64,000 nucleotides of DNA from Octopus vulgaris. Lineage: Eukaryota. Positions 17,019 to 46,203 of this stretch are shown here, piece by piece. The translations under genes were made by a program, and so were the position numbers. The notes below the pieces were generated by a model. That model worked only from the letters and a program-made list of their open reading frames with translations. It was not told where the DNA came from and made no database searches. Positions within the stretch are counted from its first letter, which is position 1. Every line of letters starts with the position of its first letter. Location of the stretch: the NCBI GenBank assembly GCA_951406725.2, contig OX597819.1, positions 43,648,001-43,712,000 on the forward strand. The letters are read 5' to 3'.

Positions 17019-17367
17019 CTCTTTTACTCTTTACTCTTTTAATTGTTTCAGTCATTTGACTGCGGCCATGCTGGAGCACCACCTTTTAGTACTTATTCTA
17101 TCGGTCTCTTTTTGCCGAACCGCTAAGTGACGGGGACCTAAATACACCAGCATCGGTTGTCAAGCAATGCTAGGGGGACAAACACAGACACACAAACACA
17201 CGCATACATATATATATACATATATACGACAGGCTTCTTTCAGTTTCCGTCTACCAAATCCACTCACAAGGCATTGGTCGGCCCGGGGCTATAGCAGAAG
17301 ACACTTGCCCAAGATGCCACACAGTGGGACTGAACCCGCAACCGTGTGGTTGGTTAGCAAGCTACTT

Positions 17368-19591
17368 TATTTCAAAACATTTGCCATAAAGGCAGTACAC
17401 AGATTAAGTTAACTTTGCGGGCTGGACGAGGACATTAATGAGGTGAATGATAATGAAAGAAAGATGATAAGGATGGGAGAAGACAGAAAGCGCCCGCCGA
17501 CTTTTGCTTCTCTAAAACATTGTTCTTTTTAAAAAAGATTAACACAAAACGAGGTATTAAACCTCTTACAATTTTTCCAATTTTGGGCTTAGCAGTCCAT
17601 TATTAATACAAAACGAGGTATTAATCCTCTTACAATTTTTCAATTTTTGGACTTAAGTCCATTACTAATAATACATATCGTCCTCGAAATAGCTTGTGCC
17701 CGCGCCCTCCACCATCAACCACGCCTCCCTCAGAACGTAGTCAAGTTCCGAGTTCGCGTCGCCCGGGACCAAGTTATAGTCTTCATTGAGCTCCTTTAGC
17801 CCTAGCGTCACGTCGAACGCCACGGCCTCCACAGCTACCTGCGGAGGCCATTCGGGGTCCTGTGTGAAGGCTAAAGGTGCTCCCTTGTAGTGCTCTTCCA
17901 TCACTTTTTCAATTTCTCCTCCTCTATAGAAGAGGACCAATACATTCAGTTCTTTCGTTGGCGGCACAGTTTCCGCCAACGGTATTCCTTCTCTTGTCGG
18001 TGGCACAACCCCAACCGACGTAGTTCCGCGACATTCCGGTGCCACACTGACAGCCGGCAACGTCCCGTTTTTCTTCCTCTTTTTCTTTTTTTTTCCCTTT
18101 TCAACTGAGGGAGGGTGCGTCTCCTCCGTGGCTGGAAGATTCGCCCTCCTCTCCTCATCCCTATTATCCTTTGGTGAGCACCCATTGTTGCTCACCTTCC
18201 TCTTTCGGCCTCTGCTTGAGGAGTCCTCTGCTTTCTCGGCCGTTATCGTTCCCTCTTCTAGAGGGGTTTTACTTAACTGTTCCGGGATCCTATTTTGTTC
18301 CCGAGGACAGTTCTTCTTTATGTGGCCGGACTCCAAGCACCGATGACACTTAGGGGGGCGACCCTCAAGCATCACCGGGTACCTGCACCCGGCCATTTTC
18401 AAAAAATCTGGAAAAACCAGATTGGCTGATTGGGTCCACAGGGTCAAAACTGCTTTCGAGCCAACCCAAGCAGCCGCAGGAAGAACTTTTACATTGAGGA
18501 GCTTAGTTTCGCTGTCACCCAGACCCCGGCGGATAGTCTCCTCTATCCACTCGGGTTCTATGTCGGGTGGCAGTCCGCAGATCCAAGCTTTCATTAATTT
18601 CTTTTTTTGTAAGTGGGCAGGAATAAGATTTCCTTACCCTCCAAGGGTTCGCTAGCAAATTTGCAAGCCTCTTCAGGGGTGTCAAACAGCAACCACACCG
18701 TTCCATATTTGACACCCCTGGAAATGAATTTAATTGTTGGCAAATACTCCTCCAACTCCTCCTCAATTGCCGTCTTTTCGAATAGGGCGATGGTGTCAAG
18801 TGCCTTGGAGTAGGTTCTCAACACCACCGTCCTATCTTCACGGTCCTTCAACCACTTTTTGGGTGGTATGATTTCCCACTCCAAAACTTTGTTATTTTTC
18901 ATTGCCATGTTTTTTAAAAAATATATTCAAATTAGACTCAAAAGCAGGAAGAAAAAAGTTCAAAAGTCTAAATAAATTTGATAGATTTTTGAAAAAACAA
19001 AAAGGAGAAAGCACAACAGAAGGGAAGAAATTAACGGAAAGTCGCAATAAAGAAAAAACAAAAGGGGGGGGGTAAATGAAGTTCAAAAGAAAGTTAATAA
19101 ACAGAAAAAACACAGCAAAAATATTCTGCGGTACTCCCGGCCTGGGTTGAACCTGGAACGCCGCAACTGCAACACAACCTCCACAAAAATGGGTCCGAAA
19201 GGTAATCCAATAGTGGCTTATTTTTATACTTTTCTTGCGAAGTACTCTGACAAGGGAATAAATTCAGCAAACCCAAACACAGCACTGGTTACTGCCAACG
19301 GTAATTTTAACAGTAACTGTATTGAATCCTGAGTATACGCCCCTCCACTGTTTTTTTTCTTTTTTTTTTTTTTTCAATGAACACAAAAACGGCAGCCGCC
19401 TAGCGCAGGCGAAATTGTCTCAGAGTTGGACACAACCTACTGAAATGATAATTGGCACGCAATAAATTATGCCCAACTCACAATAAACAAAATCACTTAC
19501 CTCGACAACTTTCCGTTTTTGGTCTTTTTTCTTTAGTTGGACTCACGTCCACTCTAGCTCAACAAGAAGCAACCGACTAACTGCGCATGTC
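17368..19591 (-). mobile_element. ORF1-only (half-L1-like) non-autonomous retroelement with 17-bp TSD
   Basis: TSD tggttagcaagctactt at 17351-17367 and 19592-19608; one ORF1-like reading; no endonuclease or RT; 3' end TGCC-TTTAT-GGCA-N8-GAAATA. Confidence 0.9.
17665..18908 (-). CDS. L1/Tx1-type ORF1 protein with CCHC zinc knuckle; split by one frameshift near 18602-18608
   Basis: ORFs 18594-18908 and 17665-18594. Contains EGRPPKCHRCLESGHIKKNCP and aligns with ORF1 at 44409-45776 (EDRTVV/EKRTVV, RGVKYGTV/RGRAYGTV). Adding one A to the A7 run fuses the two ORFs. Confidence 0.85.
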
Positions 19592-19638
19592 TGGTTAGCA
19601 AGCTACTTACCACACAGCCACTCCTGCGCCTATATATT

Positions 19639-40364: not shown

Positions 40365-40954
40365 ATTCCACTCGTGAGGTACCCTACAACTCCACTTTGT
40401 TATATATTCTTTTACTCTTTTACATGTTTCAGTCATTTGACTGCGGCCATGTTGGAGCACCGCCTTTAATCGAGCAACTCGACCCGGGACTTATTCTTTT
40501 TGTAAGCATTGTCAAGCAATGTTGGGGGGACAAACACAGACACACAAACACACTCACGCATATATATATATATATACATATATACAACGGGCTTCTTTCA
40601 GTTTCCGTCTACCAAATCCACTCACAAGGCATTTGTCGGCCCGAGGCTATAGTAGAAGACACTTGCCCCAAGGTGCCATGCAGTGGGACTGAACCCGGAA
40701 CCATGTAGTTGGTAAACAAGCTACTTTATTTCATATAATTTGCCATTTAGGCATTTACAAAGAGGGGACAAACAAGGACAGACAAATATAAAGGGTGAAG
40801 TAGCTTAACACAGTTACAATTTTCGAATGAAATTACGGATAAGATTATAAACAATGAATTTTACGAAGGCAATGTTTAAAAATATTAATGATCATGTCGA
40901 AGGACGGACACCCAGCCATCCGGGTAGAACCTTTACTTTCTGATCCGGTCACAC

Positions 40955-43900
40955 TTACCTGGTGCCAAACATACCCATCTTGTATGCCACAGGCTTCCAT
41001 CTTTTCACAAACATATCTCGTGACAGACACCTCTTCTCCAGCCTGATTTTGCTACTGAGGTGGTAACTAAAAAAGTTAATCAACCCCTGGGCAGAGACAA
41101 AGGTGCCTGTCACTATACCTTTCGTACGCGTCTTCCATACTGTTTCTTTCAGTATGGCTACTACACAGAAAAAACAAGCCTTTCTTTCCCTGTTAAGGAA
41201 AGGGGGCGGCACAATCTCGATGATAGACTCAGCTGATAGCTGTACTCTTCCCATCACTGACAACAGTTGTTCAACAAAAGCTATCAGTCCCGATAACTCC
41301 GGACACTCCACGAATGCGTGCAAGACGGTCTCCCTATCCTGCTCACATCGCGGGCATGTCGGCGAGACGGCACTACCGTGCCTTGACAGCTTGTCGCGAA
41401 CAGGTAAAGCCGCACGGAAACACTGCCAGGCCAGGGATTTATGGTAATTATCTAGATACCCCGGCCCGAACGTCCTCCGGAACAGGTTGACCAATTGATT
41501 TTCATCGTAGCCCAGGGTCTCCCCCAAGGCGTCTTCGGACTTAATCTCCACTAACCCGCTATAGAAATCTGTGGTGGAACTCCTATTGCCAGCGTTGCCC
41601 ACCCGAGATAGTAGCTGGAGCGCCTGACGGCACTCCAAATGCCGTTCACTCAGTTTAGGTCTCCGCTTGATCCATGCACCGATGTCCGTTAGGGATGTTA
41701 ACTGGGGAAGGTAGAACAGGACGTGCGGCGACCACACCTGCTCTCCATCCAGGTAAAGCCAGAGGTGCCTCAATCTTAACGCGAGTTTTCGCATCCTCAG
41801 CCAAGGCATCCCTAGCCCACCCTTTAGCGGTTTCTGGCAGCAGACAGAGCGCTTTACAAGTGGCTTTCCTCCTTTCCACAAAAATCGGAAAAGGATTCTC
41901 TCCAACTTGTTCAGCCACAAATCGGGGCAAGGCACCACGGTCAGACGGTAGGTGATTACTGATGCTATAAACATCTGCACCACCTCCGCCTTCCCTAGCA
42001 GGGATAACGCCCGCCCAGACCAGGTCTGGGTTAGAGCGGTCACCTTGTTGGCCACCTCACTCCAATTTTTCTCAATCTGGAGGTCTGGCCCGAACCAGAC
42101 TCCGAGCAGCTTAACAGGACCTTCCGTCCAACGCCCTACGACGTTATTGGACGGCATCGGCTTGCCCCTCCAGGTGCTGAGTTGCAAACCGACCGACTTG
42201 TCCTTGTTAACCTTTGCTCCTGCCACCGCCTCGTAGCTTTTGATGGCCTCTTCCACCACTGGAAGCTGGCCTTCGTCTGCCACGATGATGGAGGTGTCAT
42301 CCGCATACGCCGTAGCGCCTCTTCCACACCATAGATCATGCGGCGCGCCCCCTAGTGCCTCCAACTTCCGCAGCAAAGGCTCGAGAGCCAATACGTATAG
42401 GAGCGAGGACAGGGGACACCCTTGACGAACTGAACGCTCGATCCTGAACGGCTTCGAAAAGGAACGTTCACCTTGACTACAGACTCGATGTCGCTATACA
42501 AAGCAGCGATCCAACTTCGAAAGGCCGGGCCTAGGCCAGCCTCTCCGAGGACCGCCACCAGGTACCGATGGTCGACCCTATCAAATGCTTTGGACTGGTC
42601 TAAATGTACCAGTGCTCCCCCTGCGCCAGAAAGCTTCCCCACCCTCTCTAAGGAGTAGCGTATAAGGTGGAGATTGTCGTGGATCGTTCTGCCGGGGATA
42701 GCGCACGTTTGCGCTTCCCCGACAAGTTTGTCCACGACCCGCGCCAACCTTTTTGCTAGCACCTTGGCCAGAATCTTTAACTCTGTGTTTAACAGAGTTA
42801 TGGGCCTGAAGTTCCCTATCTCTTCCCCCTTGTTCGGGTCCTTCCTGATCAACGTCACCGCCCCCCGGCTCGCAGACTTGGGAATTCTCCCATTCTGCTG
42901 CCAGTTGGCGTAGACGCTAGCCAGCAGGTGCCCGAACAAGTCTGGCATACTTCTATAAAATTCATAGGGCAGACCATCGAGACCCGGCGACTTCTCCCCG
43001 GGGCACTTGCCCAACACCTCGATTACTTCCTCGGCTGTGATTGGCCCTTCACAGCACTCAGCCTCTCGTGTCGAGAGGCGCGGGCCACCAGACAGGAAGT
43101 CCCTAAGGGCCTCACCATGATCCAGCGTCCCGCACCTCCCGAACAACTCGGCGAAGTGCTTGTGAAGTGCCTCACACATCTCGTCCCGGTTCTTGATCGT
43201 GCATCCGTTTTCATCAACAAGAGACCCAATTGTGACATCGTTTCCACGCTGTGTTTCTATCGTACGGGCCCATCCGGCAACATTAATTCCCTCACGGCCC
43301 AATGCTCGTACTTTAGCCCGGACTCTACATCCCTCATGTTTGGTTTTGAGGTGACGGTCTAATGCCGTTCTCGCCGCTAAAATGTGAGATGCAGAGCCCA
43401 ACCTCAACGCCTCCTCTAAGTTCTTAACTAGTTGCTCTTCTATTCTAGCCCTATCTAGTCTTAGTTGTTTACTAAATCTAATGGACTCGAATCGAATGGC
43501 TCTTTTGAGGGTGAACCACCACCGCTTATTAACCACGGCTCCGGTTAACGCCCTCTGCACTAACACCTTAATCCGGCTACGGTATGCCTCGCGTGTCAAA
43601 ATAGACTTGTTCAGCTTCCAGTAGCCGGTTCCTATCTTAAGTGTGCTATCTATGTCCAGTCTACACGTGACCATTCTATGGTCAGTATAGGGCACCTGGA
43701 CGAGCTGTGGACAACTAAAACTAGACTTATCTCTAGTTCTTATCACTATCCTGTCTAGATAAGACTTGAACCTTCCGTCGCCACTCATCCAGGTCCACTC
43801 TGGGACGTTCGGATGGTCAAGTCTGTAACGATCTGCTAGCTGAAACCGCTTAAGCAGATCCACGAGACGTGAGTTCACTTTCCTATAGATCGAGCCAACG

Positions 43901-44356
43901 CTATCGATGTGTACGTCAACGATAGCATTAAAGTCCCCTAATATCACTAAAGTCTTCGACGTCACGAGAAAGCCCTCTAGGCGCCGATAAAAAATCAGTT
44001 TGGAAACCTCTAGCACAAGGTGCATAGAGTCCGATCAACCTGAAGGCCTTACTGCTGTATGTCACATCAAGGACGACCAGCCCACCTTCTGGGTCTACAT
44101 AGACTGTACTTGTCTGTAGAGCCAAGTCTTTACGGATCAGTACCACTACGCCCCCTCGCCCTCCGGTCTGGCCAGGAGACATGATTTTCTCGTAGCCATT
44201 CAGGAGAGGCGAGAAGGTTTGTAGGCTGTCCAGCTTGGTCTCTGTAGCAACCATCACATGTATATCATGTGATCTGAGGTCGTCGAGGAAACAAGCCTTC
44301 TTCCACTTCGAACTCAGACCACGCACATTTAAACAACCAAGGTTAAGCGAAGCCAT
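40955..44356 (-). CDS. LINE ORF2: AP endonuclease, reverse transcriptase and C-terminal zinc finger (about 1133 aa after repairing two 1-nt indels)
   Basis: LNVRGL, ETK, GDFN, YLDRI, TDH (APE); KSPGLDG, FRPITLLN, DQSKAFD, RQGCPLS, YADD (RT); CPRC...HAFVEC. Extra T near 43989-43994 and a missing G near 42465. Confidence 0.93.
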
Positions 44357-44408
44357 TACAAAAAGTAAAAGTTCTACTTACTTTTCGTTGGAGAGGTGGG
44401 GGCCGACC

Positions 44409-45776
44409 TCACCACACGTTTGTGGGCCCCCTCCTTCTCTCTCTCTTCAGATAGTCCAGCAAGTTCGCGACACGCCGGATGGCGTTTGGGTGTCTGTCTT
44501 TTAATTGTTTGAACGTTGTTTCCGCAATCCACGCGTGTCTATTTCGATCTTTGTATTTGTTGTACAGTCTTGCTGACTGATGCTGAACCACAATATCGTT
44601 TATGTATTTGTCTTGTGTGTCGAATTCAATTAATATGAGTTCATTTTCTTTTTGTCTTCTTTTTCTGGGCCAGTTGAGCGGGATTTTTTTTTTCCGTGTC
44701 TGTGGTGTGTCTTTGTTTTTATTATTTTTTGTAGGGGATGTGGACGGGGATGCTGCACGAATTCTTTTACGAACTGGTGTAAATCCCCCCTCTGATACCT
44801 CCATGGTATCGTCTGGGGTAGCAATAGTTTGTTCGGTAGGCACCGCAGTTTTTAGGAGGGTGGGAGGTTTTAATAGTGTAGGGGTTTGTGAGTGCGAGGG
44901 CTGGGTTTTTTCTTCAGTCTGGTTTGGGGTTGGCACCGTAACAGCAGGAGTGGGATTTTTTGTTTTTGTAGGGGTAGGTGTGTTTGCAAGGGTAGGGACT
45001 TTTTTATTATCTGAGGGGCCTGGTGTCTGCGGTTTCTTTTGCTTGTCTGGACAGTCTACACGAATGTGGCCCTTTTTACCGCAGGCGTAACAGGTGGGTT
45101 TTCGGCCTTCGACCTGTACCCTGAGGGCTACGTTCTCGCCCACGAGCACCCTCTCAGGAAGGAGCTGCAGGTCCTCCGCTGTTCCTTGAATTAATATATT
45201 AATGTTACGCCCGAGCCAAAATCGAGGGGTAGAGCATGTTACTTCTAGTATTTTTATTTTGTCCGCTCTTTTATATAACAGGGCGGCCACTACCTCTACC
45301 GGATCTACTTCCGGCGGGGCTTCTACAATCCTGACCCGGGACGACCTGCGTCCCCTATAGCTTGGAAAAAGTACCACCTCCTTGGTTTTTAGGGGGTTCA
45401 CAGAATGCCCGCGGGCCATTTCTTCCCCCGAGAAGCGGACATCCACAGTGCCATATGCCCGTCCCCTGGCGACGTACACGATGTCCTTCCAAATCGGGGA
45501 CAGGCATTTCTCGATGGTGCTTTTTTCAAAGTGTTTGAACCTTCTGCTTTGTGGACAGAAAGTTTTAAACACTACGGTCCGCTTCTCGGTTTCTACGATA
45601 CTGGCGGAGGGTGATATTGTAACATCACCACCCTCCTCTTGCATTCTTTTAAATAGCTCGACGAGCTGGTTGACATCGATGTCAATGTTCTCGGTAGCCA
45701 CCGCGGCTACCTCAGAAAATTTTTTAACATTGCTCTCCTCAAGAACACTACTTTCGTGAATAATTTCAACAGACAT
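44409..45776 (-). CDS. LINE ORF1 nucleic-acid-binding protein with CCHC zinc knuckle
   Basis: Uninterrupted ORF (first ATG at 45776); EGRKPTCYACGKKGHIRVDCP followed by a Pro/Thr/Lys-rich tail. Confidence 0.9.
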   Translation of the reverse strand: MSVEIIHESSVLEESNVKKFSEVAAVATENIDIDVNQLVELFKRMQEEGGDVTISPSASIVETEKRTVVFKTFCPQSRRFKHFEKSTIEKCLSPIWKDIVYVARGRAYGTVDVRFSGEEMARGHSVNPLKTKEVVLFPSYRGRRSSRVRIVEAPPEVDPVEVVAALLYKRADKIKILEVTCSTPRFWLGRNINILIQGTAEDLQLLPERVLVGENVALRVQVEGRKPTCYACGKKGHIRVDCPDKQKKPQTPGPSDNKKVPTLANTPTPTKTKNPTPAVTVPTPNQTEEKTQPSHSQTPTLLKPPTLLKTAVPTEQTIATPDDTMEVSEGGFTPVRKRIRAASPSTSPTKNNKNKDTPQTRKKKIPLNWPRKRRQKENELILIEFDTQDKYINDIVVQHQSARLYNKYKDRNRHAWIAETTFKQLKDRHPNAIRRVANLLDYLKRERRRGPTNVW

Positions 45777-46203
45777 TATTCTGTTGAAATTAGACAACAC
45801 AAAAATTACAAGTATTGGTTTCCCACAAAACTGGGAAACCTATAGAAAGTTTTTCTTCCAAAGTAGTTCAAAAAAGCAGTTGAAAAATTCCAATTCCCAC
45901 CCCCATTCGGGGGAGGGGCACGAAAATAGTCTGGCAGGACTATATATAGTCACGTAAATAAAAAGCCACAATGGCTAACAGTTCAACGGTAAGAAATTAT
46001 TCAATTATTTCCCGGTAAAACCGGAGAACAAGACAGTTCAGCAACGTTTAAAGGCAAATTTTTAGTAGTAGGAATTCAACAATTAACAACACAGCAAAAC
46101 TCTTACCGGGAAGAAAACGCGTCCAAACCGTAGTACGGTAAGCAAAGTCACTCTTCTGTCAGTGAGGTTAAACAAGCTACTTACCACACAGTCACTCCTG
46201 CGC

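Follow-up and report, generated by a model that had tools for sequence, protein, structure and literature searches.

The 64,000-nt window from Octopus vulgaris (the whole stretch of DNA analyzed here, to which all plain coordinates refer) contains an ORF1-only retrotransposon, denoted family A, inserted in a tRNA-type SINE, together with a candidate autonomous partner LINE that occupies the same site in another copy of that SINE. The features are as follows.

17368..19591, minus strand: ORF1-only non-autonomous non-LTR retrotransposon, family A, 2224 nt
18909..19591, minus strand: family A 5'UTR, 683 nt; some relatives carry other 5' ends instead
17665..18908, minus strand: family A ORF1, 414 aa in intact copies, with two predicted RRM-like folds, a CCHC knuckle and a variable C-terminus
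18602..18608, minus strand: A7 run splitting ORF1 in the window copy; A8 in intact copies
17368..17664, minus strand: family A 3'UTR, 297 nt, no poly(A) tail
17538-17670, minus strand: tandem duplication of roughly 65 nt in the 3'UTR region
17382..17394, minus strand: predicted 4-bp hairpin TGCC-N5-GGCA, inside the 27-nt terminus common to the LINE
17351..17367, minus strand: 3' target copy, a 17-nt direct repeat
19592..19608, minus strand: 5' repeat, composed of a true duplication of about 10 bp (19599-19608) and about 7 nt of element-encoded target mimic (19592-19598)
19609..19630, minus strand: head (5' part) of the host SINE with an A-box-like motif; the same 5' flank is found at 58 of 78 census sites
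17020..17350, minus strand: 3' part of the host SINE, with a B-box-like motif at about 17327-17336
40727..46166, minus strand: candidate autonomous partner, a 5.4-kb L1/Tx1-type LINE, at the same site in another SINE copy
44409-45776, minus strand: partner LINE ORF1, 455 aa in the window copy
40955-44356, minus strand: partner LINE ORF2, broken in the window copy

The lengths of the untranslated regions measured on the minus strand are close to the approximately 680 and 300 nt of the original prediction, which also described the element as bounded by target-site duplications. Direct repeats of 17 nt do flank it, but the true duplication covers only about 10 bp, the remainder being borne by the element. 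Likewise, ORF1 is the only gene, as claimed, but its frame is split in the window copy into pieces of 104 and 309 aa by a frameshift at the A7 run. The unbroken A8 frame is present in 12 of the 30 best genomic copies, and a 2083-nt contig from one sequencing run (RNA or perhaps DNA) that spans 17541-19601 has the A8 frame as well. The A7 run occurs in 10 of 27 readable copies, which requires at least six changes on the copy tree, and could stem from slippage or from an assembly error. A programmed frameshift is not favored, given that A7 is scattered on the tree and that, of 99 one-base indels, 77 fall within homopolymer runs. The reported lack of an endonuclease or reverse transcriptase (RT) remnant was borne out: tblastx against the window yielded matches to the LINE ORF1 alone, and no ORF2 matches were detected among the elements of the family A clade (clade I) within the 78 census sites. 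Matches to Rfam near the element are simple-repeat artefacts.

The ORF1 protein

The likeness of the family A protein to the LINE ORF1, originally thought to be limited to motifs, turned out to be continuous: the intact ORF1 aligns over 196 aa (29%, E 7e-24). An AlphaFold model of residues 1-206 (pLDDT 82) contains two alpha/beta domains, and tandem-RRM proteins match this model (best Foldseek E 3e-5); the first domain superimposes on an RRM with a VIA-align Z of 9.4 and an rmsd of 2.8 over 84 residues. The predicted RRM-like folds span residues ~14-104 and 102-185, and the CCHC knuckle residues 187-202. In Pfam, family A ORF1 matches zf-CCHC alone, in a hit (E 0.008) that falls short of the cut-off, and there is no match to Transposase_22. 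Judged by the modeled fold, this is a type I ORF1, RRM plus CCHC, under the scheme quoted in PMC5203782. Named homologs come from Octopus and Argonauta.

Copy number and the target site

Family A is a young, multi-copy family. The genome contains 217 exact family A 3' ends, 212 of which continue with AAGTAG, and 29 of 40 scored matches (40 of 3290 candidates) are single full-length alignments with 92-100% identity, so the element is not single-copy; the mean pairwise distance among 30 copies is 2.0%. The copies end in GAAATA followed directly by target bases, without poly(A), and 10 of the 40 scored matches begin at query base 348. The marks of retrotransposition, namely a fixed 3' end, 5' truncations and a target duplication, are all present.

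The copies are dispersed within SINEs and are not telomeric. The insertion site lies between two motifs of this abundant tRNA-type SINE that we take to be A-box-like and B-box-like; ARAGORN and Rfam called no tRNA in the SINE. Among octopus SINEs, OR2 is listed as a CORE-SINE in the excerpted part of PMC4758252. The pattern combining the 3' end with the target occurs 782 times in the genome compared to none for the reversed control, and a looser version of the terminus-plus-target pattern yielded 882 matches compared to 22 in the control. Given that the genome contains 81,442 exact empty target sites of the host SINE, the 882 matches imply that about 1% of the SINE sites are occupied.

Among 49 junctions, the 3' target copy is deviant at position 11 in 11 cases and at position 13 in 17; the 5' copy holds the element letter in 8 and 12 of these, respectively, and the repeat match lengths at the census sites peak at 9-10. 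These observations jointly indicate that a duplication of about 10 bp is followed by a target mimic.

The fact that nearly all examined copies lie inside a SINE, or in an array within one, might reflect passive spread, either as SINE-plus-element composites or by segmental duplication. However, the flanking SINE alleles and the outer flanks vary between copies, 5'-truncated copies of many lengths at this site are each flanked by an individual short duplication, and different families alternate inside single SINEs. Passive spread is thus largely refuted, and we regard it as exceedingly improbable.

Some diverged relatives of family A (L191, L193, L194, L202, L204 and L207) are inserted at a variant target, AAGAA instead of AAGTA, which suggests either shifted specificity or a different SINE subfamily.

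A radiation of ORF1-only families

The census of 78 sites was drawn from 100 listed junctions of the 3' end with the target, the 22 omitted being mostly copies already included or inner members of arrays. A well-scoring family A-related ORF1 is present at 38 sites, and 23 more have a 3'UTR that is nearest to the family A group; 14 contain ORF2 sequence, 2 represent a second type with ORF1 only (~1.45 kb in length), and the remaining site does not offer enough sequence for placement. With a cut of 8% on the N-terminal half of ORF1, the 38 ORF1s form 13 families, 10 of these from one sampled copy each. Six additional diverged copies are 60-72% identical to family A.

Clade I is monophyletic with a support of 100 and a long stem, and takes in one O. 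sinensis protein (P0003); none of the sampled elements inside it bears ORF2. Upstream of the last 35 nt, the clade I 3'UTRs are homologous to each other (z 3.5-19.7), with no detectable homology to three LINE families in the same region (z -1.9 to 1.8). Between the 13 families, the median dN/dS of ORF1 is 0.20 (range 0.12-0.39, 78 pairs, with dS mostly 0.9-1.7). Within family A, comparison of 29 young copies gave a dN/dS of 0.20 for shared changes versus 0.47 for private ones (Fisher p 0.017; neither half of the ORF is significant alone), the latter value still being below 1. This contrast fits source copies that require their own ORF1. By these sequence comparisons, clade I comprises at least 13 ORF1-only families subject to purifying selection. 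Because the clade is monophyletic and dN/dS is about 0.2, the case for a long-independent lineage, as opposed to a recent deletion derivative, is supported.

We further searched for an autonomous relative. The exact family A ORF1 pattern occurs 249 times in the genome; the survey of downstream sequence sampled 60 ORF1 sites on contigs C1-C4. A listed 3' end lies 0.9-1.9 kb downstream at 42 of these sites, and the remaining 18 include 13 with a short 3' end, 4 where the examined 1 kb contains no 3' end and no ORF2, and one chimera. Thus, 55 of the 60 reach a short 3' end within ~2 kb, in agreement with the absence of ORF2 from the copies. No autonomous family with a near-identical ORF1, the finding that would make family A a one-off deletion, was encountered at these 60 sites, the sole ORF2-bearing case being the single-copy chimera. 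In the chimera (G000:C4:127.353-127.359 Mb; L206, L209, L210), the family A 5'UTR and ORF1 are fused to the LINE ORF1 tail, the whole ORF2 region and the LINE 3' end. The joint is a short microhomology, its junction occurs once in the genome, and the chimera sits downstream of a B-type end (B denoting another family); it may have arisen by a template switch or by deletion inside a tandem array.

An alternative explanation is that the clade I families are separate internal deletions from extinct or unsampled autonomous LINEs with a clade I ORF1, in which case the selection on ORF1 would date from an autonomous past. HAL1 originated repeatedly in mammals (PMC5753468), the second ORF1-only lineage described below may have its own origin, and the genome searches cover the first 100 places or 25-40 scored candidates, so that a rare autonomous relative could escape, with 10 of the 13 families known from one sampled copy. 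However, the 3'UTR that follows ORF1 is homologous across clade I and occurs in none of the LINEs tested. In 17 stretches upstream of older LINE copies, we detected five long ORF1s, all of them 56-61% like the LINE ORF1 and 28-33% like that of family A. Moreover, the young family A copies also show selection. Accordingly, we consider separate deletions very unlikely.

The partner LINE and the shared terminus

The LINE is represented by 108 exact 3' ends in the genome and, like family A, is young. In 19 of the 20 best LINE copies, the junction is identical to the family A site, and in the remaining one it is 1 nt shorter. The 1133-aa ORF2 is intact in 7 of the 20 copies. Both frames are intact in 2 of the 20 (L039 and L041), and in several other copies ORF1 is 466-467 aa long, compared to 455 aa in the window. 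ORF2 contains the endonuclease (APE), RT and zf-RVT domains and, among solved structures, is nearest to human L1 ORF2p (E 8e-67), with R2 at E 6e-20. The LINE combines an RRM plus CCHC ORF1 with sequence-specific insertion, traits that are tied to Tx1 (excerpts of PMC5203782 and PMC4494074), and from its ORF1 type and target specificity it likely belongs to the Tx1 clade; no named Tx1 reference was retrieved when RT and EN were searched, from the Atlas, or by looking up the cluster. Several ORF2 families occupy the same SINE site, so the supplier of ORF2 for family A need not be fixed to one LINE.

As originally noted, nucleotide similarity between family A and the LINE is confined to the 3' terminus: among the UTRs, only the last 37 nt match (78%, E 0.42, not significant alone), with 22 of the 27 terminal nucleotides identical. 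Across 47 distinct ends, pairing holds in 92.6% of the 188 cells of the 4-bp stem, compared to at most 58.5% in slid controls, although these 47 rows are related and 37 were chosen by a pattern that fixes the right arm. There are six double changes, from C-G to T-A, at two stem pairs, a two-pair count that is reached in 85 of 500 shuffles. Thermodynamic support is weak, with folding z-scores of -0.2 to -2.4 and mostly unremarkable energies. The terminal hairpin is therefore likely, but not proven, to be real. LINE/SINE pairs with a common 3' stem-loop are an established pattern (excerpts of PMC3747384).

Taking into account these lines of evidence, we consider it quite probable that family A is a recently amplified ORF1-only element of an old lineage that inserts at a fixed SINE site, with ORF2 likely supplied in trans by the resident L1/Tx1-type LINE. 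The use of ORF2 in trans is suggested by the shared terminus and site. Under this model, family A would be transcribed from inside its own 5' end, and its ORF1p would package its own RNA, which could account for the selection on ORF1 in source copies. The LINE ORF2p would recognize the terminal hairpin and the AAAT-N6-AAATA tail rather than poly(A), and the LINE endonuclease would nick the SINE at GGT^AAGTAG, where reverse transcription would be primed. The 5' target mimic would aid second-strand joining and rebuild the target, making head-to-tail arrays possible.

A second lineage, arrays and mosaics

The second ORF1-only type, lineage II (L117 and L155; G000:C1:182.59 Mb and C2:91.19 Mb), is ~1.45 kb long, has the same terminus and site, and yielded 40 scored genome matches. 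Its ORF1 is 45% like the LINE ORF1 and 28-29% like that of family A, with a dN/dS of 0.32-0.40 across subfamilies (5 copies; the first pair tried gave >1). Lineages I and II are separated in the best tree, but the AU test rejects neither a joint clade (p 0.30) nor a grouping of lineage I with the LINEs (p 0.27).

Nine of the 78 census junctions enter non-SINE sequence that is, or resembles, the 5' end of another element, and two are preceded by the end of another element. The array L169-L170 (G000:C1:223.689-223.709 Mb) comprises a LINE and seven B units of 2.0 kb, all arranged head-to-tail in a single SINE; another array consists of three B units plus an A unit. The frequency of arrays is far above the 1% expected from site occupancy. 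We also detected mosaics (L138, L146, L149, L153 and L082), in which the 5'UTR, the front of ORF1 and the 3' part come from different families; a B-type ORF1 front is joined to an A-type back in three copies, and in L082 the body is of the A type but the 5' end of the B type. In our interpretation, these structures arose by template jumping or by renewed insertion into the rebuilt site, whereas the uniform runs of B units could result from unequal crossing-over.

The mosaics and mixed arrays suggest that different RNAs meet, and so count in favor of a variant of the above mechanism in which ORF1p is kept mainly for targeting or co-assembly with LINE particles, as described for HeT-A Gag, while the 3' signal resides in the primary sequence. 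Such proteins have been proposed to multimerize with those of the autonomous partner (Kojima 2018, excerpts of PMC5786205), and conservation of the unpaired AAAT and AAATA equals that of the stem, although these letters are fixed by the search patterns. Against this variant stand the double changes at two stem pairs and the internally deleted or 5'-truncated copies without ORF1 at the exact site; the latter argument is weak because truncated copies may derive from ORF1-coding RNA. We regard this variant as unlikely and favor packaging by the element's own ORF1p with recognition of the hairpin.

A broader, tentative possibility, which we consider doubtful, is a three-tier system. The SINE would provide more than 80,000 landing sites and a few LINE families the ORF2, and two separately derived ORF1-only lineages would outnumber the LINE ~4:1. 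The RNAs would meet in shared particles, and the RT would jump via the 5' target mimic, giving rise to mixed head-to-tail arrays and single-event swaps of 5'UTR, ORF1 and 3' modules.

Two unusual structures were found at the target site. An 89-nt element (L063:1431-1519) consists of the first 46 and the last 43 nt of family A and is possibly the seed of a non-coding derivative. At L080 (G000:C1:111116893-111116966), two oppositely oriented 3' termini each enter target bases, which looks like an inverted insertion product.

Relation to known systems

Family A has the features of ORF1-retaining non-autonomous LINEs, that is, ORF1p without ORF2, multiple copies, and an ORF1 homologous to that of the partner. 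The HAL1 elements of mammals have a poly(A) tail and are mostly ancient. Similarly to family A, they are non-autonomous, encode ORF1p only and have a partner of the L1 group (excerpts of PMC5753468 and PMC5786205). Unlike HAL1, family A combines an RRM plus CCHC ORF1 with a strict target site, lacks poly(A), shares a 27-nt terminus with its partner and is still young. HAL1 is therefore an analogy and not a group to which family A belongs, both the HAL1-type Transposase_22 ORF1 and the poly(A) being absent. HeT-A is long-lived, has one target, forms mixed head-to-tail arrays with its partner and is tied to telomere upkeep. It belongs to the Jockey clade of Drosophila and is ORF1-only like family A (excerpts of PMC5786205). 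In contrast, family A has an L1-group partner and reaches a dispersed SINE target, presumably via an endonuclease, instead of chromosome ends, with no host function evident. Ag-Sponge (Anopheles) likewise retains ORF1 and is of the internal-deletion type, but comes from the CR1 clade, and the excerpts of PMC5786205 and PMC3414825 mention no sequence-specific target for it.

The excerpts of Kojima 2018 (PMC5786205) list ORF1-retaining non-autonomous LINEs for Jockey (HeT-A), L1 (HAL1) and CR1 (Ag-Sponge), with Tx1 absent. The target-specific APE-RT elements Tx1, Keno, Kibi, Koshi and Tx1-Mar reside in multicopy RNA genes, microsatellites or transposons, the Tx1 targets being U2, microsatellites and transposons (Kojima 2015, PMC4494074); unlike for family A and its LINE, the excerpts of that paper describe neither a SINE-head target nor an ORF1-coding dependent element. 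SINEU has its partner's target in common, as family A does, but is non-coding and polyadenylated (excerpts of PMC4494074). The SIDEs of R2 also use their partner's exact site and 3' end and are non-autonomous, but they are non-coding and ribozyme-headed and belong to the R2/R1 clades (excerpts of PMC3414825). A 2026 annotation of octopus repeats includes 13 recently active L1-Tx1 families with a mean of 5.4 kb per insertion (PMC13282606); its main text and one supplement make no mention of ORF1-only or SINE-targeting elements. In the open literature, we encountered no description of an ORF1-only element that targets a SINE and lacks poly(A); a prior database entry is possible. Very likely, what is new here is a radiation of ORF1-only families coupled to an L1/Tx1-type LINE that is SINE-specific and lacks poly(A); the radiation resembles HAL1 and HeT-A in its mode of action without belonging to either.

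The SINE head is thereby added to the target range of the L1/Tx1 type, which also gains an example that does without poly(A). The octopus system is a natural test case for the general question of what maintains ORF1 in non-autonomous LINEs: because young intact copies of both partners are present, the single target can be scored by PCR and the signal is 27 nt long, ORF1 function in cis versus trans and the recognition of the 3' end are directly testable. As for the annotation of octopus genomes, the ORF1-only/LINE system may account for hundreds of elements of 1.5-2.3 kb and for stray gene models with a 'CCHC domain'. In sequencing runs labeled as two other organisms (X12 and X19; organisms B and C), contigs cover the window element with many differences, and close relatives of family A are thus present in samples with other-organism labels.
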